A stretch of 64,000 nucleotides of DNA from an uncultured virus (IMG/VR IMGVR_UViG_3300043446_002182) (taxonomy: Duplodnaviria > Heunggongvirae > Uroviricota > Caudoviricetes): the IMG/VR virus record IMGVR_UViG_3300043446_002182, one strand, 5' to 3'. Each line of letters begins with the position of its first letter. The first letter of the stretch is position 1. The translations under genes and the position numbers were made by a program. Below are positions 21,799 to 41,418 of the stretch, piece by piece. The notes below the pieces were generated by a model that was given only the letters and a program-made list of their open reading frames with translations, was not told the origin of the DNA and did no database searches.

Positions 21799-22626
21799 AT
21801 GATTAGTCTAAAACGAATTGTAGAACAGCAAGATTCAAGTCAGCTTTATGACCTTGGGTTGGATTTTTCCAATTTTCGTCGCACCATTGATGGAAGCTTT
21901 GACCAAATCAAGCAAAAGTTTGAACAAGTAATTGGTTCCAAACTTAACGGAAAACGTGTCCGTGCCCGAGCATCCAGAGGGTATAAGCAGTATGTCAAAG
22001 ACTATGAATTTGACGTTACGAAGATAACTTTGGATGACTATTATGATAATTATGTAGTGGTAGCACACGATAATACGACTCCGAAGGCCAAAGAGTATTT
22101 CTTGAAGCCCGGATTCAAGATTCAGATTTTAGGGCCAGCAAGTGGTCAACCAGCCGTGGGTAGTGATGGAAAAGGTCAACAACCATCTCCAACTCCTACA
22201 CCTTCGGCGGAACCTACGCCTGCGGCACAACAAATGGTTCCCGTTGCACCAAAGGCACCTGTAAAGGAAAGTGGAACTGGTCATTTTGATGCGTATGGCA
22301 CAGATGCAATTGCTCAAGATGTTCGTGGATGGTTACCGAAGCTATTGAAAAAGCCAGATACCGCTATGCGGGATTTCATTAAGGGATTGGGCTGGCTCAA
22401 AAATTTAGAACATGGTCAAAGTGTAGCAATGTTTGATTTGGTATTGCCATCAAACACGCTCAAAGTTTTACCGACAAAAGAAGTTTTGACGCAGTTGATT
22501 CAAACTGCAAATAAACATGGTGCAATTAACACCACGTATGAAATTAAGAGTGTGAAACCTGACATGAAAAAAGGCGAGGTAATCGTCCGTGTCAAGAAAA
22601 CAATGCAAGACACGACAACTGTATGA
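21799..22626 (+). CDS. Putative internal head protein (MISLKRIVE leader)
   Basis: 275 aa; shared leader; Pro-rich linker ending VKE. Confidence 0.6.
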   Translation: MISLKRIVEQQDSSQLYDLGLDFSNFRRTIDGSFDQIKQKFEQVIGSKLNGKRVRARASRGYKQYVKDYEFDVTKITLDDYYDNYVVVAHDNTTPKAKEYFLKPGFKIQILGPASGQPAVGSDGKGQQPSPTPTPSAEPTPAAQQMVPVAPKAPVKESGTGHFDAYGTDAIAQDVRGWLPKLLKKPDTAMRDFIKGLGWLKNLEHGQSVAMFDLVLPSNTLKVLPTKEVLTQLIQTANKHGAINTTYEIKSVKPDMKKGEVIVRVKKTMQDTTTV

Positions 22627-23204
22627 AAAAGAAAAAGCTATTTGAATGTGTCGGAGGCAATACTTTCCGATTGATTAAAGAATCGGAGTGGGCCGAGACT
22701 CAAGAAAACAACGAGAGAGTTAATCGCCAACGTCGTATGTTGAAGCATGAAATGGCATACATGAAGTCAGTATTGGCTTCTCCTTTGGCAGACCCAGAAG
22801 TTGTTGAAACGGCCACAGCAGCAATGAAAGATGCCGTAGAATTTGACCAAATCGTTGCTAAGGGATATTTGGATAGTGGGTATCAATATGACGACAAAGA
22901 CCCACGAAATCAGATGGACGTTCATGGTGATAGATATTGGGATGACAATATTGAACGAGCACGTAAAGGCTCTACCAAATCAGACGAAGTAGAAGCAGAA
23001 ATCAGACAGCAAGTTTCTCAACGCCATTTGGATGAACGTATGCGTGGGTATGAGGATTTCTTTACTAACGATTTGGCAGAAAGAATTTTCCCACAAGGAG
23101 ATGAAATGTATGGTATTGGTCTCCGGGAATATATGAGCGAAGTTGGGTCGCAGGAAGCTCAGAATGATTGGGACTATGACCATGACGATGACCACCGGGA
23201 TTGA
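22623..23204 (+). CDS. Hypothetical acidic protein
   Basis: 193 aa; ATGA overlap with upstream gene. Confidence 0.6.
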   Translation: MKKKKLFECVGGNTFRLIKESEWAETQENNERVNRQRRMLKHEMAYMKSVLASPLADPEVVETATAAMKDAVEFDQIVAKGYLDSGYQYDDKDPRNQMDVHGDRYWDDNIERARKGSTKSDEVEAEIRQQVSQRHLDERMRGYEDFFTNDLAERIFPQGDEMYGIGLREYMSEVGSQEAQNDWDYDHDDDHRD

Positions 23205-23205
23205 T

Positions 23206-23844
23206 ATGAATAACGCCGACAAAAAACTATTGGTAGAATGTATTACATTTGAAGCAGACCAACAACTGCTCAAGGAAGCTACTAGCAACCCAAATCAACC
23301 ATTTCGGGTGCAAGGTGTATTGCAACGCAAAGGGAAGAAGAATCAAAACGGACGCATCTATCCAGATGAAGTCTTGATTCGTGAAGCCCAAAAGTATGCA
23401 CAGACTTTCATCCAAGACCGTCGTGCAATGGGTGAACTCGACCATCCTGAAAGCTCCGTTGTCAATCTCAAAAACGTTTCTCACAACGTCATTGAAATGC
23501 ATTGGCAAGGCGATGACTTGGTTGGCACGGTTGAAGTGCTCACAACTCCTAATGGCAACATTCTACGTGAGTTGTTCCGTAACGGTATCAAACTCGGTAT
23601 TTCAAGCCGTGGTCTTGGTTCCTTGAAAAAGATTTCCGAAAGCTCTGCTATCGTTGGCGACGATTTTCAATTGATTGCATTTGACTTCGTGTCGAATCCT
23701 TCAACGCAAGGTGCTTTCATGGCTCCTACGGGTCAACAGAGCAGCACAATCGCTCTGGCTGAAGGGGTTGTAAAGAATCCCGCAACGAACCGTTGGGAAC
23801 GCACCGATGACATCATTCGCAACATCCTCAGTGAATTGGGTTAA
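23206..23844 (+). CDS. Prohead core protease (gp21-like)
   Basis: NQNGRIYP, GELDHP (catalytic His), GISSRGLGS (catalytic Ser), FDFVSNPS; ATG at 23206. Confidence 0.95.
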   Translation: MNNADKKLLVECITFEADQQLLKEATSNPNQPFRVQGVLQRKGKKNQNGRIYPDEVLIREAQKYAQTFIQDRRAMGELDHPESSVVNLKNVSHNVIEMHWQGDDLVGTVEVLTTPNGNILRELFRNGIKLGISSRGLGSLKKISESSAIVGDDFQLIAFDFVSNPSTQGAFMAPTGQQSSTIALAEGVVKNPATNRWERTDDIIRNILSELG

Positions 23845-23849
23845 TAAAC

Positions 23850-25850
23850 ATGAAGAACATTCGAGCATTGGTCAAGGAATGTGCCATGCGAGTCTTGAAG
23901 GAAGACTTGTCGAGCACTGACCACGACCGTATCAGCGGTGAAATCTATGCTAAACTTCAAGAGCATGGATTTCAGACCAAAGGCGATGAGCCTAACCAAT
24001 ACTCCGAATACTACCTTTGGAACTTCGCTACAATCCAATGTGGCGTGCGCCCTGACCACGTTTACGTGGAACGTTACTATGACTCGGAACGCATGGATGA
24101 CATGCACCGCAAGACTCAGAAGATTCCTCTTCCAGACCATTACGACCAAAACTACGTCAACACTGTCGTAGCCCTTTGTGTTAAATGGCAACGCAGCATC
24201 AAAGGTGACGAATCAATCTTTGGTGGAATGGATGACGTTACTGAAGTCAACCATACCCAAGATGAACGTGGCAAGTCAGTAATTGCAGTCGGTGCTCCCG
24301 GTAGCATCGCTCGTATGAAGGTGGAATATCCTGATACTATTGCTGCAATGGTCGCTGCCCTCACTAAACGTTTTGGTCCTCCCTCACCAGATTTACACGA
24401 TGTCATCCAAGACGCAGCCTTAGCTGCCGCAGGAAAGATTCTCGACAAGACACATGGTATTGGCGTAAAAAGCCTTGCTCAAGCCGCCGCCGAAGCTTAT
24501 TGGGAACAGAACAAACAGGTTGCCGAAAACACGGGTGAAGACCCCAAGGATGCTTACTACGTTGAATACGTCGGTGAGCGTGTTGGTGAAGAACCGTTCA
24601 CACTCGGCAACAGTGAACGAAAGTTTCAATATGTCAATGGTAAGTATCCAGATGGAACGATTGACATTGCGGTATATTCTTTTGCGGGAGATTTGTGCTA
24701 TGGATACAAAGCATTCCGCAGCATGATGGGTATTGAAGAAGGCTTCGACCCAACTTCCGTCGGCCCAAATCCAGCAGCCTCCGAAGGCGAAACAGTGTAT
24801 GACCCATACACATCCATGAACGCTAAAATGCGTCAAATGGAAAGTTCAAGAGTGTGTGGTCAATGTAACGGTTCTGGTGAAGGACGCCACGAAGGTTCAA
24901 AATGCACGGCTTGTCATGGCTCGGGAGAAGCTGGATACAAGAAGCCACTTACCAAGCGCACTGACCCTGACTATGATTGGGATGGCGAAGACGAAGAACG
25001 AAGATTGACTCGCAACGAAATGGTCGGCCCTGTTGACCCAAGTGTTGTCGAAGTTGAAGCTCAATTTCAAGCGGACATCGAAAACCTTAAGAAGACTCAT
25101 CCACATCTTTCCTTTGGCTACATTGGAAACTATGAGAGCGACCCTCGCATCGGTGATAACCGCTCATGGTATGTCTGGAACGTCAAAAACGGAACAAGAC
25201 AAAAGTGGGGTGGATTTGATACCAAAGACCTTCCTCAAATGTGGAAGCAATGGCAAACTGCCAAGGAAAAAATTCTCGGAGTTTCTGAGAACATGGGACG
25301 TTATGCTCAAGAAGCAGGCGCATTGGATTTGAAAGAAGCTCTTGAACTGACGCCTACCGGCGCAGATGATGAATGGTCTCGACCAGTCTATACCGACCAA
25401 AATGGAAAAACGTATGTTGACATCAATTGTGGTAGTGGTCAACCTTCGATTCATTCGGTAACTGATTCGGGCGAACCTGATTTTCCAGTTCGCAATTTCA
25501 AAATAGTTGGTTCGGCTCCCGAACGTTTTCCTGATGCTATTTGTCCTCGCTGTAAAAACAGCAAGCCCGAATACATGGATAAATCGGCTACTGGTATGAC
25601 AAAATGTAAGTGTTGCCATTGGCAAGACAACCCCGGCGAACCATATAAAGCAGGGATGAATCCATCAGAAAATCAAGTTTCTGAAAATGCCACCGACAAC
25701 AAAACCTTTCAGCAGATTCGTGATGAACAAGACCCCAAAGGAAAAAATCACGACTTGACGTTGACTTGCGTAAAATGTGGAACAACAGAAACTTGCCGAT
25801 GCTCAAAGCCTAAGCGAAAGTTCAAAGGCATCTGCGCTAAGTGCTGTTAA
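23850..25850 (+). CDS. Modular putative internal head polyprotein with DnaJ-type CxxCxGxG and other Zn-finger segments
   Basis: 666 aa; CGQCNGSG/CTACHGSG; segments bounded by LKE, VTE, VAE, IEE, VSE. Confidence 0.6.
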   Translation: MKNIRALVKECAMRVLKEDLSSTDHDRISGEIYAKLQEHGFQTKGDEPNQYSEYYLWNFATIQCGVRPDHVYVERYYDSERMDDMHRKTQKIPLPDHYDQNYVNTVVALCVKWQRSIKGDESIFGGMDDVTEVNHTQDERGKSVIAVGAPGSIARMKVEYPDTIAAMVAALTKRFGPPSPDLHDVIQDAALAAAGKILDKTHGIGVKSLAQAAAEAYWEQNKQVAENTGEDPKDAYYVEYVGERVGEEPFTLGNSERKFQYVNGKYPDGTIDIAVYSFAGDLCYGYKAFRSMMGIEEGFDPTSVGPNPAASEGETVYDPYTSMNAKMRQMESSRVCGQCNGSGEGRHEGSKCTACHGSGEAGYKKPLTKRTDPDYDWDGEDEERRLTRNEMVGPVDPSVVEVEAQFQADIENLKKTHPHLSFGYIGNYESDPRIGDNRSWYVWNVKNGTRQKWGGFDTKDLPQMWKQWQTAKEKILGVSENMGRYAQEAGALDLKEALELTPTGADDEWSRPVYTDQNGKTYVDINCGSGQPSIHSVTDSGEPDFPVRNFKIVGSAPERFPDAICPRCKNSKPEYMDKSATGMTKCKCCHWQDNPGEPYKAGMNPSENQVSENATDNKTFQQIRDEQDPKGKNHDLTLTCVKCGTTETCRCSKPKRKFKGICAKCC

Positions 25851-25856
25851 AATAAG

Positions 25857-25885
25857 TTTACTTCCCTCCAAATCTCGCATATACT
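25857..25885 (+). promoter_or_regulatory. sigma70-type promoter
   Basis: TTTACT-17 nt-TATACT, 10 nt before ATG 25896. Confidence 0.6.
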
Positions 25886-25895
25886 TCACGGTATT

Positions 25896-26891
25896 ATGCG
25901 AGATTTTCTGTTTACATACGACAACATCTGCCTTCGCCCGAAGTATTCGGAATTGCCCACTCGTCAGCTTGCCGACACATCTGTAAACTTTCTCGGACAC
26001 AAATTTCGATTGCCAGTCGTTCCTGCAAACATGCAAGATGTTATCTCGTGGGACTTAGCAAGCGGCCTCGCTCTGAACGACTATTTCTACATCATGCATC
26101 GGTTTGGAGACGCAAATTCCACGATACCTGCCCATGTTCGAGAGTTTGCAAAAGTTCGCAGCATCAGTGTGGGAGTCAATGATTTTTCCAGAGGGGAGTT
26201 GCAGACCTTGGCAAACCAAGGTGTTATTCCTGAGTTCATTACCATTGACGTTGCTCACGGACATCACGGTAAAGTAAAGGACATGGTTGAATATATCCGA
26301 ACAATGTTCCCTGCAAAACGTTGGGGGAAAGATGAATTCGGTGATAAAGCCCTCATGCCCGTCAGGAAGCCAAACATTATCGCTGGCAATGTTGCTACGG
26401 CAGATGGCTACAAGTTTCTCTGTGATTTGGGCGTGGATGCAGTCAAAGTTGGAATCGGGGGCGGTTCGATTTGCAGCACACGTTACAAGACTGGATTTCA
26501 CCTTCCGACTGCGTATTCTGTATGGGAATGTGCAACCAAAGGCGACCGTGATGTTCCAATCATTGCCGATGGTGGAGCAACGCATTTCGGCGACGTTGCC
26601 AAGGCACTTGTCCTTGGTGCTGACATGGTAATGTCTGGCCGATGGTTTGCAGAGTGCATTGATTCGCCTGCTCGAATCCACAATGGAAAAAAGATTTACC
26701 GTGGCTCAACGTCGTTTGAGTCCAAAGGGCATAACAACCACATTGAGGGTCATACACTGGCTATCACCGAGGGTTGCAAATACGTCGAGCGGTTGCAAGA
26801 GATTCAACAGGCGTTACAATCTGCAATCTCCTATGCGGGTGGAACGAATCTATCAGCATTTAACGGCGTTGAGTGGGAACTTTTGAAATGA
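25896..26891 (+). CDS. guaC: GMP reductase (IMPDH/GMPR family)
   Basis: PVVPANM, ITIDVAHGH, IAGNVAT, KVGIGGGSICSTR, IIADGG, LQSAISYAGG. Confidence 0.85.
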   Translation: MRDFLFTYDNICLRPKYSELPTRQLADTSVNFLGHKFRLPVVPANMQDVISWDLASGLALNDYFYIMHRFGDANSTIPAHVREFAKVRSISVGVNDFSRGELQTLANQGVIPEFITIDVAHGHHGKVKDMVEYIRTMFPAKRWGKDEFGDKALMPVRKPNIIAGNVATADGYKFLCDLGVDAVKVGIGGGSICSTRYKTGFHLPTAYSVWECATKGDRDVPIIADGGATHFGDVAKALVLGADMVMSGRWFAECIDSPARIHNGKKIYRGSTSFESKGHNNHIEGHTLAITEGCKYVERLQEIQQALQSAISYAGGTNLSAFNGVEWELLK

Positions 26892-27283
26892 AGACCGACG
26901 CTGAACAGATAAAGGATACATTTCTCGCAGCTAAAAGTCTCAACGAGCGTGGGGAGTGGAAGTTGGGCGACCCATATATGGAAGATGATTTGGGGAACAT
27001 TCGATTTTTAGGCTGGTGTCATAAGTTTGAGAACGAACTAAAAAGTATTTGTGATAAATGTCCGTTTCAAGTAAGTCATCCAACCCTGTGGTTAGATGAA
27101 ACCCATACAAGAGGAATTCCCGCCAACAAGTTGTGTGCCGCACATACTAAAGATATTGGGACGTGTTATGATACGGTTAATGTAGCTAAACACTGTCAAC
27201 TCATTGATAGGGAAAAGTTCAAAGTGTATGTCCGTGAAATAGAGGCATACCATAAATGGTGGGATGATAAACTGAAAAAATGA
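26888..27283 (+). CDS. Hypothetical Cys-rich protein
   Basis: ATGA overlaps at both ends. Confidence 0.6.
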   Translation: MKTDAEQIKDTFLAAKSLNERGEWKLGDPYMEDDLGNIRFLGWCHKFENELKSICDKCPFQVSHPTLWLDETHTRGIPANKLCAAHTKDIGTCYDTVNVAKHCQLIDREKFKVYVREIEAYHKWWDDKLKK

Positions 27284-27576
27284 ATCGTCGCTCTTTCTTC
27301 AAACGTCTCGGAATGGCAGTCGGTGCAGTAATGCTCCCTACCAGCATTTTGTCTTACGACCCTGTTAAGCAGGAAGTAGTCAACCCAAAGCTTGACAATT
27401 CCCCTGTGTTGGGGTATAAAGGTCATCAGTTTTTAGAAGCTGGGGTGGTTTACGCCCCATACATACCGCTTATACAGACCTGTCATTTGGTCGGCAATCC
27501 AGATTTTGTTAAGCGATACGCAGAATCAACAATCAACAAATCATTTTATGGTACACGCAAAATTTCTGGAAATTGA
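27280..27576 (+). CDS. Twin-arginine signal peptide fused to a major-capsid C-terminal fragment
   Basis: MNRRSFFK + hydrophobic stretch; GYKGHQFLEAGVVYAPYIPLIQT matches MCP GFRGNNFLETGAVYSPYIPLIQT; RYA and FYG also shared. Confidence 0.8.
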   Translation: MNRRSFFKRLGMAVGAVMLPTSILSYDPVKQEVVNPKLDNSPVLGYKGHQFLEAGVVYAPYIPLIQTCHLVGNPDFVKRYAESTINKSFYGTRKISGN

Positions 27577-27928
27577 CAAGGCAACCAGCAAGGGGAATAT
27601 CTATCCCAAGGAAGTCATTGAAACGGCTGTTCGTGCGTTCATTGAACTAGCCAAGGAAAACCGCTTCCCCATTTTTCGCAATCCCACCGCCAATCCAACC
27701 CAAGCGGATGTCGTTGGCGTAGCCGAAAACCTTCGGATTGAAGATGGTTACTTGTGCGGCGAGATTGGGTTTCACGAGGATTATTTGAAAGAAATCGTTG
27801 ACCCGACAGGCGAAGTGAAAATCACGGTTCGGCCAAACGGCTTCGGCTCTGCTGACGAAAATGGCGTGATTCGTGAGGGATACGTCATTAACGGGTTGAC
27901 GGTTCGGTTCAATCCCAAAGGGTCGTGA
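27548..27928 (+). CDS. Degenerate prohead-protease paralogue lacking catalytic residues
   Basis: GNIYPKEVI vs GRIYPDEVL; VRPNGFGS vs ISSRGLGS; no GELDHP. Confidence 0.65.
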   Translation: MVHAKFLEIDKATSKGNIYPKEVIETAVRAFIELAKENRFPIFRNPTANPTQADVVGVAENLRIEDGYLCGEIGFHEDYLKEIVDPTGEVKITVRPNGFGSADENGVIREGYVINGLTVRFNPKGS

Positions 27929-28374
27929 GACTTCTCATAACAGGCCACCGAGAAGAGAAACTTGCCACCTATGATTTGGTGTGGATTAACACCCACATTC
28001 AATTGGAACTCTACAAGATGCGAGACACGCTTGGCATCAGTATGGCATATTCGGGCATGGCATCGGGGGTTGATTTAATGTTCTGTGATGCCTGTGTAGT
28101 TGCCAACGTTCCATTCATTGCTTGCATTCCATTCGACGAACAGGGCGAGGGCATGACCGAAAAGGCTCGGCAAATTCGTGAACATTTCATTCAAAAAGCA
28201 GTCTCCGTAAAGAAGGTCAAAAACTCGTGGATGGTCGAACATGCGGACGCAGGTTTGGTCGTTTGGGATGGCAACAAAGGCGGAACGCATAACGTTGTGC
28301 AACAACTGGTTGAGAAGAATAAACCCTTCGTCTGGATTAACCCTGTTGGCTTGAAGGTCTGGCATTGTGCTTGA
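27925..28374 (+). CDS. SLOG-superfamily (YspA-like) protein
   Basis: ITGHR, SGMASGVD, IPF, VWDGNKGGT. Confidence 0.75.
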   Translation: MRLLITGHREEKLATYDLVWINTHIQLELYKMRDTLGISMAYSGMASGVDLMFCDACVVANVPFIACIPFDEQGEGMTEKARQIREHFIQKAVSVKKVKNSWMVEHADAGLVVWDGNKGGTHNVVQQLVEKNKPFVWINPVGLKVWHCA

Positions 28375-28398
28375 CTTTTGGGGTGACTCTGCTATACT
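28371..28398 (+). promoter_or_regulatory. sigma70-type promoter with extended -10
   Basis: TTGACT-16 nt-TATACT with TGn; ATG 28410. Confidence 0.65.
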
Positions 28399-28409
28399 GG
28401 CTGCGAATT

Positions 28410-28934
28410 ATGAAGAAGAGTGACCGGGCTAAGAAAGTCGCCGCTGAAACGATGGACAAGATTCGTCGAATCGCTCGACACATTCGTAACGTCGAAGACA
28501 ACTGTCTCATTTTGGGTGAAAAACTCATTGAGCGGGGTGAAATTGACCTTGGGCACAAGCTGATTGCAAATGGCTATATTCACGATGCTTCCAAGTTTCA
28601 TGGCATCGAATGGGAGAATATGGCACCAGATGAACCCCTCCATGAAGAGGGAGCAAAGCTGAAACTCAAGCTGGCGGTGCAACACCACAACCGCACCAAC
28701 CAGCATCACCCCGAGTATTGGGGTGGTATCCATCACATGCCTCGTCTGTATCTGGCCGAAATGGTCGCAGACTGGAAGGCTCGTAGTGAAGAATTTGGTT
28801 CATCCGTCAGAGATTGGGTGAACGAAGGTGCAGCCAAACGTTTTGGTTTCGCTAAGGACGACAAGGTATATCAAGAAATCATGGAATTTGTTGACTTGCT
28901 TTGTGAACGACCGTTTGAAAATATCTCTAAGTAA
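28410..28934 (+). CDS. HD-superfamily protein (DUF5662-like)
   Basis: H...HDASK...HH...NQHHPEYW...MP..YLAEMVADW. Confidence 0.75.
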   Translation: MKKSDRAKKVAAETMDKIRRIARHIRNVEDNCLILGEKLIERGEIDLGHKLIANGYIHDASKFHGIEWENMAPDEPLHEEGAKLKLKLAVQHHNRTNQHHPEYWGGIHHMPRLYLAEMVADWKARSEEFGSSVRDWVNEGAAKRFGFAKDDKVYQEIMEFVDLLCERPFENISK

Positions 28935-28943
28935 TTAACACAC

Positions 28944-29342
28944 ATGACACCAAAATCAATCAATATCGCAGTTGGCGAGCAGGTTGCAAAACTCGGTTCG
29001 GCCAAGGTTGTTGACGCAGTTGTTTCAAAACTCGTTGACGCAGAAGTGAACAAACGTGCAGACGCTTTGGCGGCTGCAATCAAACTCGCCGAGGATACTT
29101 TGCGGGAACAACGCAAGGCGGCAAAACCCGACCAAGTTTTTATTGCAGCAGATGGCACGAAGACCGAATCCTTCTCAGCAAAGGCATTTGAGGCCAAGAA
29201 GAAGCTGGAAGAGAAGTTGGCCAAGATTGACAAAATCGTTGAGAACGCCACAGGCGAAGCTGGCGATTGGGGCAAGCTGTATGAGTTGGTAAAGGGTGGT
29301 GGCAACGCTCCCGCAGCCGATGAACCCGCAGCAAATAGCTGA
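28944..29342 (+). CDS. Hypothetical Ala/Lys-rich helical protein
   Basis: 132-aa ORF in operon. Confidence 0.65.
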   Translation: MTPKSINIAVGEQVAKLGSAKVVDAVVSKLVDAEVNKRADALAAAIKLAEDTLREQRKAAKPDQVFIAADGTKTESFSAKAFEAKKKLEEKLAKIDKIVENATGEAGDWGKLYELVKGGGNAPAADEPAANS

Positions 29343-29499
29343 ACGAGTTAAGATTGAAGCAGACGCTCGGTTTGGCGAAACCATCGGGCGTCTGCTTTTT
29401 CTTTTGGAGTATGATGAACGGTTAAAACAATCCGTTCGCAGATGTTATTGTCACGAAATCCAAACAACACGCCTCTGCGAGAATTGTCATGACGCCTAA
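29320..29499 (+). CDS. Small hypothetical Cys-containing protein
   Basis: Fills gap; CYC/CENC; N-terminus resembles that of the next gene. Confidence 0.5.
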   Translation: MNPQQIAERVKIEADARFGETIGRLLFLLEYDERLKQSVRRCYCHEIQTTRLCENCHDA

Positions 29500-29830
29500 A
29501 GAAATCCTTGACATTGTAAGGGAAAAAGCCGATACTCGCCTAGATGAAACGGTGGAAAAGCTGCTGGCGATACTTCGCAATCGGCATACCCATCAGTGCT
29601 GGCAGCGAGAATGCTCATGTGAGTATTGCCAGTTTATCAATGGTCAATACGTTGACCTGAAATTGTCAATGCATCGCTTAAAGGTTCGCATCAACCGCAT
29701 TGACTATTGGGATGCACGAGATTGGGAAATGACGCTGTTGCCTCAACTTTCAATGGACATGATGAAATTGAAAGAGAAGTTGAGGACATTGAAGGCGCAT
29801 AAAAAAGATTTACAGACAAACATCGTATGA
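29489..29830 (+). CDS. Hypothetical protein (CSCEYC motif)
   Basis: 113 aa; ATGA overlap with next gene. Confidence 0.6.
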   Translation: MTPKEILDIVREKADTRLDETVEKLLAILRNRHTHQCWQRECSCEYCQFINGQYVDLKLSMHRLKVRINRIDYWDARDWEMTLLPQLSMDMMKLKEKLRTLKAHKKDLQTNIV

Positions 29831-31002
29831 ACTGGCTACATCCAAACACGATTTACGTAACGCTCTACGGCTCACAAGCTTATGGACTCGCTAACGAGTT
29901 CTCTGACGTTGACGTGAAGGGTATCTGCGTCCCGCCTCGGGAAGTGGAATACAACCTCTATCATCGCTTCGACCAAGCAGAAAACAACCCTGCGTTGGAA
30001 GCCAGCCTTGGGCACTTGAAGAACCCCAAGAATCCGAAGTTTGAAAGCACGATTTACTCTCTTCGGAAGTTCTTCTTGCTTGCTGCCGAAGTCAATCCGA
30101 ACATCATCGAATTGCTTTGGACAGACCCAAGTCAGCACTTCGTATCGAAGCCACTGATGCAGAAGCTTCTGGCTCACCGTGAAATGTTCTTGTCCAACAA
30201 GGCACGTTACACGTTTGCTGGGTATGCCTGTGCTCAGGCCAAGAAGATTGAACGTCACCGCAAGTGGATTGTGCTTGGCGAAGTCAAGCCGCCCAAGCGG
30301 GAAGACTTTGGTCTCCCTGCCGAGACGCCAAAGCAGATGGAAGAAATCTTCGGATTTGTGAAGAGCAAGGTTGAACAGTGGAATCTTAACCAATTCCCAT
30401 TGGACGAAATGGCTCGGAACGAATTGAAGGACAGTGTATGGGAAATCGTTTCCACGCTGACGGACAAGGAACTGTCTGTGGCGAACTGGCCAGACCGTTA
30501 TGCCGAAGGAATCATCTTCAAGATGCAGAAGGACTTCAACCTCAAGGACGAAGTTGTGGAATACATTCACGCTGAACGTGCTTTCGCCAAGGCCAAGCAA
30601 GTCTATGACTCTTGGGTTTCTTGGAAGAAGGAACGTAATCCCGCTCGTCGGGAACTTGAAGAAAAGTCTGGCTACGACACGAAGCACGCAAGTCACCTTG
30701 TCCGCTTGATGCGGATGGGTTACGAAATCGTGACGGAAGGCAAGGTCATCGTCAACCGTGTGGGACTCGACGCCGACGAATTGCTGTCCATCAAGAACGG
30801 TGGATGGTCATTCGACAAGGTGATGGAGTTCAAGGATGAAATGGAAGGTAAGCTGGATGCTGAATACAATCGGCAGAAGAAGGCTATCGCCGCAGGCGAA
30901 TCCGTTCCACTTCCTCGGGAAGTCAACAAGGAAAAGTTGAACTCTCTGTATCACGAATTGTATGAAGAATACAACACGAACCCAGCGTGGCAAAAGGTGT
31001 AA
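29827..31002 (+). CDS. Pol-beta-superfamily nucleotidyltransferase (YcgL/RlaP-like)
   Basis: GSQAYGL....SDVDVKG, NPNIIELL, GYDTKHASHLVRL. Confidence 0.85.
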   Translation: MNWLHPNTIYVTLYGSQAYGLANEFSDVDVKGICVPPREVEYNLYHRFDQAENNPALEASLGHLKNPKNPKFESTIYSLRKFFLLAAEVNPNIIELLWTDPSQHFVSKPLMQKLLAHREMFLSNKARYTFAGYACAQAKKIERHRKWIVLGEVKPPKREDFGLPAETPKQMEEIFGFVKSKVEQWNLNQFPLDEMARNELKDSVWEIVSTLTDKELSVANWPDRYAEGIIFKMQKDFNLKDEVVEYIHAERAFAKAKQVYDSWVSWKKERNPARRELEEKSGYDTKHASHLVRLMRMGYEIVTEGKVIVNRVGLDADELLSIKNGGWSFDKVMEFKDEMEGKLDAEYNRQKKAIAAGESVPLPREVNKEKLNSLYHELYEEYNTNPAWQKV

Positions 31003-31114
31003 TTCAAAACCCCTCTCAAGAGAATTTCTCTTGAGCAGGGGTTCTTGTTGTAAACGTGGCTGCACGAACTGTCCGTGGGACTATAAAAAGCCCGAGAAAC
31101 CAAAAGATTTATGA
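30962..31114 (+). CDS. Small Cys-rich protein (DUF5522-like), absent from ORF track
   Basis: Own translation: MKNTTRTQRGKRCNSKPLSREFLLSRGSCCKRGCTNCPWDYKKPEKPKDL; ATGA overlap with 31111. Confidence 0.7.
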   Translation: MKNTTRTQRGKRCNSKPLSREFLLSRGSCCKRGCTNCPWDYKKPEKPKDL

Positions 31115-31950
31115 TTGGCGCAATTATTGGAGACATCATTGGTTCACCCTACGAAGGTGGATACAATAACCCCATTCCCGAAACCAAAGACTTCCCGTTG
31201 TTCCGTAAGGAATGTCGGTTTACTGACGACACCGTTCTGACATGTGCCACGGCACATACGTTGCTGAACCCAACCTTGTCTCCTTACAAGTATCGCTTTG
31301 CCAAACAATACAAGCGTTGGGGCACACAATACCCCGACCGTGGCTACGGTGGTATGTTCAAGAAGTGGATGGCACAGCCCGGGATGAGTGTTTTGAATAG
31401 TTATGCCAACGGCTGTATGATGCGTTGCAGTCCAATTGCGCTGTTCTACCCTGACCGAGAGACTGCCTTGCAACGGGCATTGCAAAGCATTGCTTACACT
31501 CACAACTCTCCTGAATCGGCTCGTGGCGTTCAATCCATTGTCGAGGCAACTCACATGGCTTGGAACGGAGCAACGAAGGACGAAATCAAAGCCCGAGTTC
31601 AGGAGCAATACGGCCACATGCTCAATCTTACTTTGGAAGAAGTCAAGGCCAAGGCTGGTCGTGACATTCGTTGCAACCTGACTGCGCCCCAAGCGTTGAT
31701 ATGCTTCATGCTCGGCACAGACTATGAGAGCACCATCCGCAATGCCGTTTATACGGGTGGAGATACGGATACAATTGCTGCAATCTCAGGTGCTATGGCC
31801 GAAGCGTTTTATGGAGTGGAAACCATTCCTCAATCAATGATTGATGAAATGAAGACACGCATTGACCCACACATTCTCTCCGTAATCAATCGCTTCTATG
31901 CCAAGATTGCTGCCCACAATCCGAAATACAAGGATTTCGCAATCGTATGA
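31111..31950 (+). CDS. ADP-ribosylglycohydrolase (DraG/ARH family)
   Basis: GAIIGDIIGS, FTDDT, SYANGCMMR, THN, GGDTDTIAAISG. Confidence 0.92.
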   Translation: MIGAIIGDIIGSPYEGGYNNPIPETKDFPLFRKECRFTDDTVLTCATAHTLLNPTLSPYKYRFAKQYKRWGTQYPDRGYGGMFKKWMAQPGMSVLNSYANGCMMRCSPIALFYPDRETALQRALQSIAYTHNSPESARGVQSIVEATHMAWNGATKDEIKARVQEQYGHMLNLTLEEVKAKAGRDIRCNLTAPQALICFMLGTDYESTIRNAVYTGGDTDTIAAISGAMAEAFYGVETIPQSMIDEMKTRIDPHILSVINRFYAKIAAHNPKYKDFAIV

Positions 31951-32234
31951 AAGCCAAACTCTGCCTCACGGAATCCATTCCAGTCAGAGCCAAGGTTGTG
32001 CTCGGCCATTTGGAATATGAAATCGAAGAGGAAAGCCTCAAGAGATTTTTGAAAGAATACCACTACGACCGAAGTATGTGGGAGAATGTTGCCCAAGCCA
32101 GACGGGTGTCGGATTTGGAACGGGCAAACGACAACATGCATAACAACATCAAACGCATTTCCGAATCAGAAAACCCTCGGCAGGAATTGCTGGACTATCT
32201 CGTATATCTCAACACCCCAATCGCAGTAGCATGA
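31947..32234 (+). CDS. Hypothetical protein
   Basis: 95 aa; ATGA overlaps both ends. Confidence 0.6.
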   Translation: MKAKLCLTESIPVRAKVVLGHLEYEIEEESLKRFLKEYHYDRSMWENVAQARRVSDLERANDNMHNNIKRISESENPRQELLDYLVYLNTPIAVA

Positions 32235-32752
32235 GCACTCACGTAAACATCGAAAACGACGAGATAACTATCCCATATTACGCTGTCCACAAAGATGGCG
32301 AGATTCGGGGGTTCTTCGGTCCTTACCGATTCCTGAGCAACTTCTACATTCTCGATAGTGGGGTGACGTTTGAAGATTTGGTGTATCCTTCGACGGAACA
32401 CGCCTATCAAGCTGCCAAGTGGCCAAAGAACAAGCGCACTCAGTTTCTTGATGTAACTGCTGCCAAGTCGAAGCACCTTGGAAAAGAAGCACCAAATTTT
32501 AATGCGAAGAAATGGAACAAGAACAAAGTCGAACTGATGCGAGCATTGGTCTTTCAGAAGTTTGAGCGTAACCTTGTCCTCCGAAAAAAGCTGTTGGCAA
32601 TGGAAGGCTATGTGCTGGACGAAAGGAATAGTTGGTCGGATACTTTTTGGGGAACGGATGAAAATGGAAATGGTGAAAATCATCTTGGACTTATTTTAAT
32701 GAGTGTTAGAGATAAGTTTATCGAAATGACCAATAAAGAAAAGTATTGGTAA
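32231..32752 (+). CDS. NADAR (YbiA-like) family protein
   Basis: FLSNFY, STEHAYQAAK, KF, D.FWG, GENHLGLILM..R. Confidence 0.9.
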   Translation: MSTHVNIENDEITIPYYAVHKDGEIRGFFGPYRFLSNFYILDSGVTFEDLVYPSTEHAYQAAKWPKNKRTQFLDVTAAKSKHLGKEAPNFNAKKWNKNKVELMRALVFQKFERNLVLRKKLLAMEGYVLDERNSWSDTFWGTDENGNGENHLGLILMSVRDKFIEMTNKEKYW

Positions 32753-32800
32753 TGTAACACTTGGGGTGATGTTTTAGAAAGTTATTCCATATTTATTGGT

Positions 32801-33460
32801 ATGGAAACTCAAAAAATATACGTCATTAGAAATGACATAAACTCCAAAGTTTATGTGGGACAAACGGGTAAATCTCTACAAGAACGATTCACTCGACATT
32901 GTGCGGAAGCAATTTGGAAAAATACTAAACGAATGCCAATAGTCATGGCTATTAAAAAATATGGAAAAGAACATTTTTCCATTCATCTTCTTGAAGAGTT
33001 GCCGTTGGGAACTGAACAAGCAATCGTAGATTCAAAAGAAACAGAGTGGGGATACAAGCTCAATGCTTTTTGTCCAAATGGATATAATCTAAAGTTTGGA
33101 AACGGTCGTCGGCAATGGTCGGATGAAGTAAAAAAGAAAATTGGAGATTCACAACGAGGAAAATATGTCTCCGACGAAACTCGCCAAAAACTATCCAAAT
33201 CACATATGGGGAATAGACTTTCAACCGCCGCCAGAAAAAAACTCTCTCTTCGATGGAAGGGAGTTCGACCATGTAAATTAGCACAACAAAATTCGGTTGC
33301 AGCGAGTTCTAAAACATATGTGTTGATGAACCCGACTGGTAATAAACAAACGATTACTAACATGTCTCTATTTTGCCGAGAGAATGGATATAACAAAGGT
33401 CAAATGTGTTTGTTAGTGAATGGGAAAAAGAAATCATATAGAGGATGGAGACAACTATGA
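32801..33460 (+). CDS. GIY-YIG homing endonuclease with NUMOD3-like repeats
   Basis: IYVIRN....KVYVGQT, GYNL, SDETRQKLSKSH; own ATATTTAT motif at 32789. Confidence 0.85.
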   Translation: METQKIYVIRNDINSKVYVGQTGKSLQERFTRHCAEAIWKNTKRMPIVMAIKKYGKEHFSIHLLEELPLGTEQAIVDSKETEWGYKLNAFCPNGYNLKFGNGRRQWSDEVKKKIGDSQRGKYVSDETRQKLSKSHMGNRLSTAARKKLSLRWKGVRPCKLAQQNSVAASSKTYVLMNPTGNKQTITNMSLFCRENGYNKGQMCLLVNGKKKSYRGWRQL

Positions 33461-33777
33461 ACACTCGAAGTTTACCAACTAAGCGGATGCCAAAATATCC
33501 AAAAGCAGCATACCGTCCCAATTTCAATTTCAAAAAAGTGCCTTGGTGTGAATTCATTATTGTATGTAAGACGGAGAAAGATAGAAAACAAATTCGAGCG
33601 GCGATGCAATACTTTCATGATATGAAAGAAACGGATACAGGTTTCATTGTTGTGAATCAGTTAGTTCACAACTATCTACATGATGATGCTAGTGATGCTC
33701 ACACAGATGTCATCGTGGACGCTCCCCTCTACAAACGACTCAAACCTCGTAAAAATGTCAAGTTGACAAAGCGGTGA
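33457..33777 (+). CDS. Hypothetical protein
   Basis: ATGA overlap with endonuclease. Confidence 0.55.
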   Translation: MNTRSLPTKRMPKYPKAAYRPNFNFKKVPWCEFIIVCKTEKDRKQIRAAMQYFHDMKETDTGFIVVNQLVHNYLHDDASDAHTDVIVDAPLYKRLKPRKNVKLTKR

Positions 33778-33791
33778 GAATGTGGTAATCT
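33763..33791 (+). promoter_or_regulatory. sigma70-type promoter
   Basis: TTGACA-17 nt-TAATCT with TGn; ATG 33801. Confidence 0.7.
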
Positions 33792-39723: not shown

Positions 39724-41418
39724 ATGGAAAACGTTAAAGAACTGTTGACCAATGCATTGAACCCTCAAGCACGCTTGATGGCCGAAACCCGTGGACTCGT
39801 GTCCAAGTGGGAAAAGACCGGCTTGCTCGAAGGTCTCAAGAATGACATTGAGAAGTCAAACATGTCCGTTTTGCTTGAAAACCAAGCAAAGCAACTCATT
39901 GAAGAATCATCTGTCACTGGCACTCAGTCCAACTCTGAGCAGTGGGCAGGTGTCGCACTTCCTCTCGTTCGTCGTGTATTCGCCGAAATCGCAGCTAAGG
40001 AATTCGTCTCCGTTCAACCAATGAACCTGCCTTCGGGTCTGGTGTTCTACTTGGACTTCAAGTATGGCACGACCACTGGTGCGTTCACGGCTGATTCGAG
40101 CACCAACTATTCATCCCTCTTCGGTGGAACGGGTGCTAAGTCTGGTTCGACTGACCAACCAACGGGCGGTCTCTATGGCCCGGGCCGTTATGCCTACACT
40201 GTCAACGACCAAATTGCATGGAGCCAGTCCACTGGTTCTGCTGCAACTGTCGCAGACATCAACTTCGATACTGGTAACAGTAACGATTCAGTTAACCAAA
40301 CGTTGTCAGCATCGCTGGCCGCTGGTCAACTCTATACCTTGACCACCAATAACTTGACTTCGGTTGTGTTGTCAGCCTCGGGTTCATACCCAGACCTCAA
40401 CGCAGTCCGTTCGTTCTCGCCATCTGGCTCGGGTATCGTTACCTACTTCCCCGGCTTCACCCGCTTTAGCGGTGCAGAAGTTGTGTTCGTTGTCTCTGGT
40501 TCGGCAATTTTGACTGGTTCGGCATCGCCCGCAATCAAGGTCAACTTGAGCTTGCAACCAAAGGATACTTCCCGTGGTGACTTTGAAGACCGTCTCGGTG
40601 CTTCGACCACTGCTACGGATACTGGTCTTAACAAAGACATTGGTATTCCAGAAGTTAACCTCGAACTCCGCAGCGAGCCTATCGTTGCTAAGACCCGTAA
40701 GTTGAAGGCTGTCTGGACTCCAGAATTGGCTCAAGACTTGAACGCCTACCACTCGGTTGACGCAGAAGCAGAATTGACTGCACTGTTGTCAGAGTATGTT
40801 TCGATGGAAATCGATCTCGAAATCCTCGACATGCTTATCAACAACGCCCCAGCAATCAACAAAGAACGCTGGTCGGCTAAGTTGAACCGTGAAATCATCA
40901 AGACTGGTGCTTCCAGCTACCAGATTGTTGACCAAACGACCGCTGGTTCCGGTGGTTACTACACCAAGGCAACTTGGTATCAAACCCTCGGTAACAAGAT
41001 TCAAAAGGTATCTAACAAGATTCACCAATTGACTCTCCGTGGTGGTGCAAACTTCATGGTCGTCGGTCCAGATGTGGCAACCATCCTCGAATCCATCCCC
41101 GGATTTGTGGTGAACACAGACGGTGACTCGGCCAAGTTCGCAATGGGCGTTTCTCGTGTTGGTAGCTTCGCAAGTCGCTTCCAAGTTTACAAGAACCCAT
41201 ACATGCAAGAGAACTTGATTCTCATGGGCTTCCGTGGAAATAACTTCCTCGAAACCGGCGCAGTGTATTCCCCATACATTCCGCTCATCCAGACCCCTCT
41301 GGTGTATGACCCTGTGAACTTCACGCCTCGCCGTGGTGTCATGACTCGTTACGCCAAGAAGATTGTGCGTCCTGAGTTCTACGGTCTCATCTACGTGGCA
41401 GACACGAACCAAGTCTAA
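39724..41418 (+). CDS. Major capsid protein (gp23-like)
   Basis: PLVRR, VQPMNLPSG, AKTRKLKA.WTPELAQDL.AYH..DAEAEL, YSPYIPL, FTPRRGVMTRY. Confidence 0.97.
   Translation: MENVKELLTNALNPQARLMAETRGLVSKWEKTGLLEGLKNDIEKSNMSVLLENQAKQLIEESSVTGTQSNSEQWAGVALPLVRRVFAEIAAKEFVSVQPMNLPSGLVFYLDFKYGTTTGAFTADSSTNYSSLFGGTGAKSGSTDQPTGGLYGPGRYAYTVNDQIAWSQSTGSAATVADINFDTGNSNDSVNQTLSASLAAGQLYTLTTNNLTSVVLSASGSYPDLNAVRSFSPSGSGIVTYFPGFTRFSGAEVVFVVSGSAILTGSASPAIKVNLSLQPKDTSRGDFEDRLGASTTATDTGLNKDIGIPEVNLELRSEPIVAKTRKLKAVWTPELAQDLNAYHSVDAEAELTALLSEYVSMEIDLEILDMLINNAPAINKERWSAKLNREIIKTGASSYQIVDQTTAGSGGYYTKATWYQTLGNKIQKVSNKIHQLTLRGGANFMVVGPDVATILESIPGFVVNTDGDSAKFAMGVSRVGSFASRFQVYKNPYMQENLILMGFRGNNFLETGAVYSPYIPLIQTPLVYDPVNFTPRRGVMTRYAKKIVRPEFYGLIYVADTNQV

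Follow-up and report, generated by a model that had tools for sequence, protein, structure and literature searches.

The window, a 64,000-nucleotide stretch of DNA from an uncultured virus of the Caudoviricetes, contained a small gene that encodes a Tat-type leader followed by a piece resembling the end of the major capsid protein (MCP) encoded in the same window. The features of this gene, its flanking ORFs, and the capsid gene are listed below.

27280..27576, + strand: whole gene, encoding a 98-aa pre-protein (P0002) plus the stop codon (ORF translation; 88-member two-part family)
27280..27339, + strand: Tat-type twin-arginine leader MNRRSFFKRLGMAVGAVMLP, residues 1-20 (88-member alignment, TIGR01409, AF2)
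27340..27405, + strand: linker TSILSYDPVKQEVVNPKLDNSP, residues 21-42, conserved in this subfamily only and without a strict AxA signal-peptidase site
27406..27480, + strand: copy of the block C core (VLGYKGHQFLEAGVVYAPYIPLIQT), residues 43-67, matching MCP 499-524 (BLASTP, MCP-profile search, motif conservation)
27481..27573, + strand: shortened copy of the MCP tail (..NPDF..RYAE..FYG..), residues 68-98, matching MCP about 525-559 (BLASTP, MCP-profile search)
26873..27283, + strand: upstream 136-aa ORF, the stop of which overlaps the P0002 start (no family match)
27548..27928, + strand: downstream 126-aa ORF, with a 29-nt overlap with the P0002 3' end if the ATG at 27548 is used (no family match)
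39724..41418, + strand: gp23-type major capsid protein (P0001), 564 aa, parent family of the copied segment (Pfam, PHROG, phmmer, AF2/Foldseek)
41194..41385, + strand: MCP residues 491-554, the stretch that P0002 resembles (BLASTP)

The ORF at 27280-27576 agreed exactly with that written in a first-pass annotation of this DNA. The gene starts with ATG, and its N-terminus cannot extend further because an in-frame TAA occurs at 27268-27270, 12 nt before the start. An ATGA at 27280-27283 joins the start to the stop of the upstream ORF, and the gene sits in a same-strand operon that is packed by overlaps, with a composition like that of its neighbours. The upstream ORF was missing from the corresponding slot in relatives L042, L043, L123, and L124, and the downstream ORF was likewise missing in relatives. 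No Shine-Dalgarno motif was found before the P0002 start; a motif of this kind was present at only 8 of the 46 gene starts of the window, and the MCP gene start was not among the 8. No late-type TATTTATA motif was found before the gene. The sigma70-type promoter that had been proposed upstream was not borne out, as promoter-like matches in 22000-36000 numbered 16, compared to 19.6 +/- 4.7 in shuffles, and the nearest upstream match on the + strand (26793-26820, 9/12) was of an ordinary, chance level. The location in an accessory block, about 12 kb from the MCP gene, was supported, and a spacing of 12.1 kb was measured. The neighbour genes encode an ADP-ribosylglycohydrolase, a NADAR domain protein, an RlaP-type nucleotidyltransferase, and a YspA SLOG protein, which speak to function by guilt by association only. 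PADLOC models, a library of defence rather than anti-defence proteins, gave only a NADAR-like match over the gene and 15 neighbours, and no match in the gene itself or its nearest neighbours. No tRNA gene in the window was informative on the host. Two DNA sequencing runs from a single freshwater sample were identified as the possible source, and no RNA run was listed.

The parent MCP matched Pfam Gp23 (PF07068, E 3.3e-75), PHROG 138 ('major head protein'), and solved T4 gp23 chains (phmmer, E about 1e-29), and its AF2 model (pLDDT 81.9, pTM 0.75) matched T4 capsid chains in Foldseek with E 2e-19. BLASTP aligned P0002 residues 35-91 with MCP 491-554 (28/65 identical, 43%, E 2e-12), and a search with an MCP profile matched residues 39-96 with MCP 496-559 (E 1.4e-17). 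The identity of 16 in 23 residues that the first-pass annotation had claimed, followed by RYA and FYG in the same order, was reproduced by a hand count against the window's own MCP. Degenerate back-translation of YIPLIQT matched only P0002 and the MCP in the 64 kb, where 0.03 matches were expected. Against Pfam Gp23 PF07068, residues 41-81 aligned with profile positions 302-347 of 376 (E 3.1e-5) at 24.0 bits, slightly under the cut-off of 24.4. In the AF2 model of the MCP, the matched region contained strands at 498-502, 513-523, and 535-547. The copied segment corresponds to the strand leading from the A domain into the beta-sheet of the P domain, and it holds the most conserved motif of the gp23 family, G[YF][KR]G..FLE.G.VYAPYIPL..T.

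P0002 shares with T4 gp23 and its vertex paralogue gp24 (PF07068; PDB 5VF3, 6UZC, 7VRT, 8GMO, 1YUE) this motif, the glycines and prolines kept in the copy (G502, G505, G512, P517, and P520 in MCP numbering), and the region of MCP about 491-559. In contrast to these proteins, it covers about one-tenth of the HK97-type fold, or approximately 60 of the 564 residues of the parent, and the complete gp23 fold (N-arm, E-loop, spine helix, P and A domains) is not present. P0002 is unable to form a capsomer because the A domain, the I domain, and the spine helix are missing. The isolated protein was predicted by AF2 to be mostly coil, with a pLDDT of 58-73 in the capsid part and a pTM of 0.29. A further difference from gp23 and gp24 is the export-type leader; a leader joined to a whole MCP was rejected, as the leader was uncovered by all 120 listed of the 170 longer matches. 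A recent duplication of the end of the phage's own MCP was also rejected, as the copy ranked its own MCP only 71st among 92 MCPs. Over the block C core, the small proteins were as close to MCPs (0.55) as to one another (0.52). Among the relatives, G009 was the only contig that carried both the small gene and an MCP gene, and it ends before block C.

The Tat consensus is [ST]-R-R-x-F-L-K near the N-terminus. P0002 starts with MNRRSFFK, in which N-R-R-S-F-F-K (residues 2-8) fits this consensus, and continues with an h-region of 17 uncharged residues with a mean Kyte-Doolittle value of 1.51. Tat h-regions span about 12-20 residues that are uncharged and moderately hydrophobic, and a basic residue often comes next; the next charged residue in P0002 is D26. 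AF2 predicted a helix at residues 3-17 (pLDDT 90). The Tat signal peptide claimed earlier stood in its consensus and h-region, but not in its profile score, which at 13.2 bits was under the TIGR01409 cut-off of 16.7. PF10518 gave no match to P0002 at E<=1. Periplasmic release is doubtful because a strict [AVS]xA cleavage site 14-34 residues after RR was present in only 21 of the 88 family members described below, P0002 not being among them; I-L-S|Y in P0002 is a possible weaker signal-peptidase site.

Both leader and MCP part were kept in 7/7 close homologues and in 88 diverse small proteins in all, so that the two-part architecture noticed by the first-pass annotation recurs across a family. 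The 88 comprise 82 of the best 150 profile-search matches over 1.84 billion representatives and 6 close homologues, and correspond to at least 88 clusters at 50% identity. Members were selected by a pattern of [RK]R, any residue, and two hydrophobic residues, which forces R4 and not R3; R3 was invariant in the alignment, as was the pattern-required R4, and M1 and F6 were each kept at >=90%. RR was preceded by N in 72/88 members; position +3 was F in 87/88, position +4 was L or F in 79/88, and position +5 was K or R in 61/88. The median length of the uncharged run was 15 residues, and in 59/88 members the first charge after it came from K or R. TIGR01409 matched 31 members at E<=1 (best 2.6e-6), the other 57 being without a match. 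The family resembles Tat substrates (TIGR01409, PF10518), among them small or signal-anchored proteins (hydrogenase small subunits, Rieske proteins), in N-R-R-x-F-[LF]-[KR], a moderately hydrophobic h-region of approximately 15 residues, and a basic residue that frequently comes next. Unlike these substrates, P0002 is phage-encoded, is under the TIGR01409 cut-off and without a clear AxA site, and carries as its passenger a cofactor-less, capsid-derived peptide of the 50-80-residue type.

The pieces that follow the leader were drawn from three MCP blocks, namely block A (about MCP 80-120), block B (about MCP 316-374, comprising the E-loop return strand and the spine helix), and block C (about MCP 496-559). 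Family members carry one to three of these blocks after the same leader, sometimes in non-native order, and mosaics were identified in P0041, P0049, P0084, P0136, L123, and L124. L003 (9789-10004) contained the leader and block A only, and in L135 three leader ORFs lie in tandem, with MCP pieces that differ from one ORF to the next. The core residues of block C were kept in 81-100% of small-family members, and the MCP-tail copy (the region of residues 68-98) in only a minority. Capsid-fragment proteins that lack the leader were also found (P0048, P0062, P0110, L005, and L020). In L027, the segment behind the leader copies residues 3-55 of the MCP of that phage, which belongs to PHROG 9953 (38% identical, E 7e-14, 14 kb apart); a phage with an unrelated MCP family has thus built the same type of protein from its own MCP. 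A second unrelated MCP family probably did likewise, since in L024 and L026 the leader precedes a copy of residues 308-351 of a 433-aa protein, which is placed among capsid clusters in the Atlas at 0.96-0.97, as a lead only. A weakly portal-like protein was copied after a leader in L019.

These observations bear on a reading of the product as an exported envelope peptide, periplasmic or signal-anchored, that would exclude superinfecting phages, set the time of lysis, or clog the Tat translocon. The textbook Tat features of the leader are consistent with it, as are the canonical AxA sites in sister proteins L019, L135, L142, and L143, and the nearest proteins by Atlas features were small Tat-leader proteins (hydrogenase small subunit, Rieske leader, PF10518) at 0.79-0.86, which serve as leads only. 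On the other hand, leaderless relatives exist, and MCP pieces were recruited independently in two, probably three, unrelated MCP families. This independent recruitment and the conservation of the MCP motif itself argue that the identity of the capsid piece matters, and we know of no periplasmic target that would see a capsid strand. An envelope role is considered rather improbable, and so is its corollary that the capsid origin only supplied raw material or a sticky strand.

P0002 very probably belongs to a large family, going by the profile matches; our literature search found no paper describing such a gene or family, and the family was absent from the annotated libraries searched. A blastn search with window positions 26000-30000 against deposited phages gave no match. 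Tblastn searches of the same phages with P0002, P0074, and P0089 returned MCP genes only among the matches listed; for P0089, these were the best 60 of 605, and three records with >=80% coverage were outside these 60. The first 40 residues of P0089 had no match in deposited phages at E<=10. A family-profile scan of 5 whole related phage records returned only MCPs and two chance-level matches (E about 0.1), the small gene being missing from 5/5. No cultured carrier was found in the deposited-phage searches made, and a search of genome contigs yielded one leader-only match (in a Psychrobacter genome) and no family member.

The small gene is under purifying selection, with dN/dS below 1 in three close pairs, which contradicts the neutral decay that the first-pass annotation had raised. 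The dN/dS values were 0.004/0.103 for L042/L043, 0.158/0.287 for L120/L121, and 0.228/0.727 for L123/L124; the neighbour gene DUF5662 gave 0.110/0.855 and 0.106/0.995 in the latter two pairs, respectively. In dN, the small gene reached about double the value of its neighbours. The small proteins of the window and of L042 were 41% identical, compared to 83% for the MCPs over 488 aa. The slot of the small gene shifts between relatives, and the gene is an optional, fast-evolving accessory. A decaying, pseudogene-like leftover of a partly duplicated MCP, or an artefact of gene calling, might be suspected from the short gene, the lack of a Shine-Dalgarno motif, and the Pfam Gp23 threshold missed by 0.4 bits. 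However, start, leader, and motif are kept by 88 diverse relatives, few gene starts of the window have an SD-like motif, and the tight packing in the operon, the matching composition, and the dN/dS values all argue against it; this explanation is extremely improbable and is contradicted by the conservation data. We hold with high confidence that this gene of a T4-like freshwater myovirus is real, under selection, and optional, and that its product combines a Tat-type leader with an old, diverged copy of a gp23-type MCP strand.

The fast evolution and optional presence of the gene could also suit a weapon between phages, or between phage and satellite, in which a dominant-negative capsid piece would poison or mislocalise the MCP of co-infecting relatives or of capsid-stealing satellites. 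The copy is nearer to the family consensus than to its own MCP, and the tandem cassettes of different pieces would fit such a use. Satellite capsid-size redirectors such as Sid, CpmB, and Ccm are small proteins or MCP homologues that act on the capsid assembly of another element. They differ from P0002 in being satellite-encoded, cytoplasmic, and leaderless, and Ccm is a whole HK97-fold protein. Self-poisoning would be hard to avoid, as the core motif of the phage's own MCP is nearly identical (16/23); the Tat leader is left unexplained, and no immunity partner is evident among the neighbours. We regard this explanation as distinctly improbable.

Our leading but tentative reading, which we put forward as possible rather than probable, is that the capsid look-alike binds a cytoplasmic reader of unassembled MCP, most likely a host sensor, and brings it to the Tat translocon. 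The peptide alone, unstructured in the AF2 model, would expose the strand face that packs on the spine helix in the MCP and would mimic unassembled or nascent MCP. It could then bind a cytoplasmic factor that recognises the conserved MCP segment, most likely a host immune sensor of capsid protein and less likely a chaperone or an EF-Tu-type factor. With this factor bound, the Tat leader would take it to TatBC, the inner-membrane receptor, and the factor would there be held or else co-exported in the way that Tat moves signal-less partner proteins; the benefit to the phage would presumably be counter-defence. The leaderless relatives point to a cytoplasmic partner and would themselves act as plain sponges. 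The decoy idea is favoured by the fast evolution, by relatives that copy other conserved MCP blocks, and by the convergence of unrelated phages on the same design. Against it, a copy of the trigger might itself activate the sensor, and large sensors may be too big for Tat.

Host immunity has been described as reading short conserved MCP segments or the conserved MCP core, as copied by the P0002 family. Gol, the most conserved gp23 region, binds EF-Tu and is sensed together with it by the Lit protease (PMC3014915), and MCPs are reported to be sensed by CapRel, Avs7, Avs8, Avs10, and Dsr1 (PMC9712102, PMC13581612). Gol and the other triggers are parts of the real MCP, whereas members of the P0002 family are encoded by a separate gene with a leader. 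Block A, the N-proximal block carried by L003, presumably overlaps the T4 Gol peptide, according to residue numbers. To our knowledge, no sensor for block C has been described. The Avs sensors described so far are reported to read whole conserved folds rather than short strands (PMC13581612), which would count against a short-strand decoy. Among anti-defence proteins, DSAD1 is reported to occupy DSR2, a sensor of the tail tube (PMC11087589). DSAD1 and sponge-type proteins share with the proposed decoy the logic of blocking or soaking up a virion-protein sensor, and the P0002 gene is small, optional, and fast-evolving; unlike P0002, they are not copies of the sensed protein and have no export signal.

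Known cases of Tat hitchhiking, such as HybO/HybC and DmsA/DmsB, involve cognate redox-enzyme subunits, unlike P0002. We know of no phage case and no bait-type use of such co-export. Some Tat substrates are described as travelling as heterodimers with the signal on one partner (PMC10924467), which would offer a route for a small leader-bearing protein to move a bound, signal-less partner. In the available portion of a 2026 Tat review, phages are mentioned only for phiX174 E/SlyD and T4 RI. Capsid, portal, and terminase proteins are conserved patterns that are read by many bacterial immune sensors and are hard for a phage to mutate. If the decoy were real, the gene type would amount to a new counter-defence class, the first in which a virus employs the Tat pathway to that end.

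The glycines and prolines kept in the copy would also fit a peptide that folds against the MCP itself, a point of sequence conservation that favours a modulator of head assembly. Such a peptide would pair with the MCP of its own phage, for instance on a folding intermediate's spine helix or along the edge of a capsomer, and the kept residues are those glycines and prolines that determine the fold of the MCP strand. Some members combine blocks B and C, which pack together in the P domain, and the T4 gp31-bypass mutations G292S/V306I/V307I and A455V map by alignment to blocks B and C (PMC9546572). Furthermore, the T4 prohead is reported to start on the inner-membrane-bound portal (PMC9958956), the weakly portal-like protein of L019 was copied behind a leader, and the P0002 gene lies 3.4 kb downstream of a prohead protease gene on the same strand. 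The leader could accordingly position the peptide at the inner membrane, where it would nucleate, tether, time, or cap the shell or aid P-domain folding. However, an export leader with a 15-residue h-region makes a poor stable anchor, and the gene is missing from 5/5 related records, occupies a mobile slot, lacks a late-type motif, and has a rate of evolution about double that of its neighbours and well above that of the MCP; the copy resembles its own MCP no more closely than it does other MCPs. An assembly role is unlikely in our estimate. If assembly were nevertheless the function, the gene would reveal a so far unrecognised level of control over head assembly, located at the membrane. Both the decoy and the assembly reading would help to show which segments of the MCP are read inside the cell prior to assembly, and what reads them.

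The decoy could be extended to a general, convergent counter-immunity device, in which Tat mini-proteins made from conserved pieces of virion proteins would bait the cognate host pattern-recognition proteins, and the leader would pull the pair of bait and sensor to the translocon in the membrane or export it by that route. This generalisation is speculative and on balance unlikely; if true, hitchhiker export would for the first time be seen to serve a virus in disposing of an immune sensor. The family is easily tested, as its proteins have <100 residues and a single RR-to-KK change would be informative. The gene type, an export signal paired with copies of conserved virion pieces, is widespread and was repeatedly invented, with the MCP as the source in two, probably three, unrelated families and the portal as a source on weaker data.

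The window derives from a large T4-like myovirus, and its DNA was present in two sequencing runs from one freshwater sample. It contained the following genes:

14657–16312, terminase
16379–18499, portal
23143–23844, prohead protease
27280–27576, + strand, the small protein under study (ATG start, 98 codons)
39724–41418, major capsid protein (MCP, 564 aa)

The small ORF translates as given in the first-pass annotation. Its ATG is preceded, at a distance of 12 nt, by an in-frame TAA, which rules out a longer N-terminus. The stop of the upstream ORF shares ATGA with the start codon, the last 29 nt are shared with the following ORF provided that the latter begins at ATG 27548, and the base composition is like that of the neighboring genes. 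A sigma70-type promoter had also been proposed upstream, which was not borne out, as promoter-like matches in 22000–36000 numbered 16 versus 19.6 ± 4.7 in shuffled sequences. The absence of a Shine-Dalgarno motif before the gene is uninformative because 8 of 46 gene starts in the window have such a tetramer, and the MCP start is not among the eight. The few Shine-Dalgarno motifs and the A-rich leaders of the window's genes would fit a Bacteroidota-like or cyanobacterial host; the closest cultured relatives of the MCP belong to phages of Flavobacterium and Microcystis.

The MCP matched Pfam Gp23 (E 3.3e-75) and solved T4 gp23 chains (phmmer E about 1e-29), and its AF2 model (pLDDT 81.9, pTM 0.75) matched T4 capsid chains in Foldseek (E 2e-19). 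Residues 35–91 of the small protein aligned with MCP residues 491–554 (28 of 65 identical, E 2e-12), and the 23-residue likeness given in the first-pass annotation was confirmed at 16 of 23 identical positions. The back-translated YIPLIQT pattern matched two sites alone, one in the small protein and one in the MCP. The likeness behind the leader resembles that of a capsid-epitope mimic, but the threshold of the capsid family itself was not reached. Full-text literature searches found no paper describing capsid fragments behind an export leader, and the available part of a 2026 Tat review mentions phages in other contexts alone.

Homologues that keep both parts, which the first-pass annotation had proposed to look for, do exist. 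A word-indexed search retrieved seven small proteins (73–98 aa, 54–70% identical), and the leader and the motif were present in 7/7. A profile of these and the window member (8 proteins) was searched against 1.84 billion cluster representatives and matched 409 of them at E ≤ 1e-3. Among the best 150 of the 409, 82 were proteins of 67–135 aa that passed two regular expressions (RR leader; Y.PY-type motif), and the others included full-length MCPs, the ends of MCPs whose gene calls were truncated, and several small proteins that lack a leader. Together with six extra sequences from the word-indexed search, these formed an 88-member set. R3, R4, and P60 were invariant in its alignment, and M1, F6, G55, Y58, Y61, and P63 were conserved in at least 90% of rows; the leader expression forced R4 and a hydrophobic pair, and left R3 and F free. 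N preceded RR in 72 of 88 leaders, followed by F at +3 (87), L or F at +4 (79), and K or R at +5 (61). The uncharged run had a median of 15 residues (range 8–24, n = 88), and the next charged residue was basic in 59 of 88. We take these statistics to represent the textbook Tat pattern.

By model score, the Tat case is weaker than by pattern. TIGR01409 matched 31 of 88 members at E ≤ 1 (best 2.6e-6), and a strict AxA site, absent from the window member, occurred in 21 of 88. The window member (13.2 bits, cut-off 16.7) is alike to Tat substrates at its N-terminus but below the Tat-family threshold, and so is not a member. With such an N-terminus, the protein might be an exported envelope peptide, which we regard as rather improbable. 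When predicted alone, it formed a leader helix at residues 3–17 (pLDDT 90) with a coil-like remainder (pTM 0.29), and the model in Atlas, a protein-cluster resource, had a pLDDT of 0.35; the modeling suggests that the protein lacks a fold in isolation. Two larger proteins with twin-arginine-type N-termini (L006:8297–9217, 306 aa; L006:13252–14511, 419 aa) were seen in a phage with a distant family member; therefore, Tat-leader use there is not limited to capsid fragments.

All small proteins were mapped onto a profile of 92 gp23-type MCPs in the numbering of the window MCP. Every leader-bearing member contained block C (about 496–528, often to about 559), and some contained further blocks in non-native order. 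Block B (316–374, the E-loop return strand and spine helix) occurred in P0041 and P0136, and block A (80–120) in P0049 and P0084; the block B match of P0067 was weak (domain E 0.32, above the requested cut-off). Two close relatives of the window's phage (L123 and L124) had the order B then C. These blocks are the three best-conserved stretches in the MCP alignment. The core of block C was conserved in the small family at G502 (95%), G505 (89%), G512 (97%), Y515 (95%), A516 (85%), P517 (100%), Y518 (96%), I519 (86%), P520 (97%), L521 (81%), and T524 (83%). Position 513 was A in 71% of MCPs versus Y in 42% of small proteins, position 525 was P in 85% of MCPs versus P in 20% and C in 18% of small proteins, and the small proteins also departed from the MCP pattern at 522–523.

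A second leader gene of 71 aa (L003 9789–10004; the same in L004 3762–3977), located directly 5' of a family member, copies block A alone (window MCP 80–113; PHROG 138, E 1.3e-4). This region presumably overlaps the T4 Gol peptide. A metagenome contig (L135:1322–2877) harbored three tandem leader ORFs (108, 111, and about 80 aa) with three different gp23-type MCP pieces, after which comes an ORF of 221 aa that has no leader and carries VQPM..P.G, the motif of block A. Other capsid-fragment proteins were leaderless, including P0048, P0062, P0110, P0120, two adjacent ORFs in L005 (9944–10565), and L020 (9992–10306). Block C precedes block B in P0048 and P0062 and follows it in P0110; in P0062, an RR is retained but a hydrophobic stretch is lacking.

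In the MCP model, block C comprised strands 498–502, 513–523, 535–547, and 553–559, and block B comprised strands 311–330 and a long helix (347–373). T4 gp23 residues were mapped via a phmmer alignment to the mature T4 chain (chain index plus 65), and the numbering was checked by the residue letters, which match the mutation names. T4 A455 corresponds to window MCP P520, within YSPYIPL, and to P63 of the small protein; T4 G292, V306, and V307 correspond to A353, I367, and L368 in block B. In the available text of the T4 study, A455V, or G292S/V306I/V307I, frees gp23 from the gp31 co-chaperonin (PMC9546572). On this evidence, blocks B and C form the P-domain packing core and govern chaperonin-dependent folding. 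A role of the small protein in head assembly, the main alternative, is favored by this packing pair, by the retained glycines and prolines, and by the reported start of T4 proheads at the membrane (PMC9958956, in part).

The same design was found in other MCP families. A 100-aa leader protein (L027:10001–10300) copies residues 3–55 of its own phage's MCP (20/53 identical, 38%, E 7e-14), which is encoded 14 kb away (L148:1501–2466; PHROG 9953 'major head protein', E 2.2e-24); this is an independent case from another MCP family. Leader mini-proteins of two complete 74.5-kb genomes, a tandem pair in L024 (9718–10339) and one seen in L026 (10001–10360), share NP.W.NAPYE and about 44 residues with positions 308–351 of a 433-aa protein (E 5e-6). 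The latter (L152:580–1878) had no Pfam or PHROG match and was placed by Atlas, as a lead only, among capsid clusters (PF13252, N4 gp56-like; 0.96–0.97); it is probably the capsid protein of these phages. At L019:4176–4879, two leader mini-proteins that have canonical AxA sites are encoded in tandem, and one of them matches residues 420–460 of a 640-aa protein (L019:7659–9578) that is weakly portal-like, below thresholds. Because capsid segments were recruited independently in different MCP families, capsid identity clearly matters, which favors the capsid look-alike proposed below. Competition between phages, to which the first-pass annotation had also pointed, is a more doubtful use of such copies than envelope export.

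Relatives of the window's phage (L042, L043, and L120–L124) kept the member gene in the same gene block as the window, whose shared order is:

protease, large ORF, IMPDH/GMP-reductase-like, DUF5662, YspA SLOG, RlaP-type nucleotidyltransferase, ADP-ribosylglycohydrolase

The member follows the reductase-like gene in L042, L043, L123, and L124, and DUF5662 in L120–L122; neither of the small ORFs that flank the gene in the window occurs at this slot in these relatives. Their members were 36–53% identical to the window copy and the neighbor genes 60–83%; for the L042 contig, the MCP was 83% identical over 488 aa and the member 41–42%. Nei-Gojobori estimates for unsaturated pairs gave a dN/dS of 0.004/0.103 for the member in L042/L043. 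The values in L120/L121 were 0.158/0.287 (member) and 0.110/0.855 (DUF5662), and in L123/L124 they were 0.228/0.727 (member), 0.106/0.995 (DUF5662), and 0.167/1.608 (reductase-like gene). These values indicate that the member is selected as a protein, yet evolves faster than its neighbors. Since dN was below dS in all three pairs, the neutral decay considered in the first-pass annotation was not seen, and it is very improbable that the gene is a remnant.

By sequence comparison, the MCP copy is old. The window's own MCP ranked 71st of 92 MCPs by score for the copy, block C core similarity was 0.55 (small vs. MCP), 0.52 (small vs. small), and 0.71 (MCP vs. MCP), and the nearest neighbor of a small protein was another small protein in 61/87. 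Of 170 longer proteins that matched, the 120 listed were MCPs covering 58–74% of the query, and none of these 120 covered the leader. The family profile found no member in five whole phage records (Flavobacterium phage immuto, Microcystis phage Mel-JY01, two uncultured huge phages, and GAP32), tblastn of deposited phages found none among the matches listed, and two close-subfamily patterns found none in one genome per bacterial/archaeal species. The gene is optional and evolves fast, which argues against the head-assembly role and leaves it unlikely.

As to every aspect of its action, we infer, tentatively and ahead of the alternatives, that the small protein is a capsid look-alike. By mimicking unassembled MCP, it would bind the cytoplasmic reader of that form, and its Tat leader would carry the bound reader to the Tat receptor. 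The copied part is the conserved, hard-to-mutate region of the sort that host sensors are known to read, and the behavior of the gene is that of an accessory gene in an arms race; both count for the look-alike. Known readers of MCP, as far as the available texts describe them, include Lit, which senses the Gol peptide together with EF-Tu, as well as CapRel, Avs7/8/10, and Dsr1 (PMC3014915, PMC9712102, PMC13581612). Gol is described as a 29-residue stretch within the first quarter of gp23 that is the best-conserved part of this protein and binds EF-Tu (PMC3014915, in part). The leaderless versions point to a cytoplasmic partner, and Tat is reported as the sole export route able to carry a bound, signal-less partner (PMC10924467, in part). 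On the other hand, the Avs sensors described in the available accounts read whole folds, which counts against the look-alike; a copy of a trigger may itself trigger, and large sensors might exceed Tat capacity. The unclear cleavage site and sub-threshold leader score of the window member also count against it.

Elsewhere in the window, the 8-base motif TATTTATA, read along the downstream gene, occurred 8 times versus 0.87 expected:

6027–6034, + strand
16320–16327, + strand
18546–18553, + strand
38215–38222, + strand
41490–41497, + strand
43662–43669, + strand
36206–36213, for a - strand gene
48532–48539, for a - strand gene

It lies 0–60 nt 5' of gene starts, most of which belong to structural genes, including portal and the gene that precedes the MCP, and may be a phage late-promoter-like element; none was found before the small gene. 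Judging by the site at 36206, the real gene there is probably the - strand ORF 35724–36197, not the + strand ORF 35808–36284. An RlaP-type nucleotidyltransferase, an ADP-ribosylglycohydrolase, a 95-aa ORF, and a NADAR-domain protein are encoded in a row at 29827–32752 and may form an ADP-ribosylation-reversal or RNA-repair module, and a GIY-YIG/HNH-type homing endonuclease gene (32801–33460) is located within the accessory block. The window contained no tRNA genes. One 1068-aa ORF (8407–11613) with PHROG matches to SbcD-like (residues 10–367) and SbcC-like (273–1066) proteins looks like a fused nuclease-ATPase. An 876-aa protein (51952–54582, - strand) has a tRNA nucleotidyltransferase (CCA-adding) domain in its C-terminal half and an unassigned N-terminal half, and a small RF-1-domain (peptidyl-tRNA hydrolase-like) protein is encoded at 42548–43048 (+ strand).
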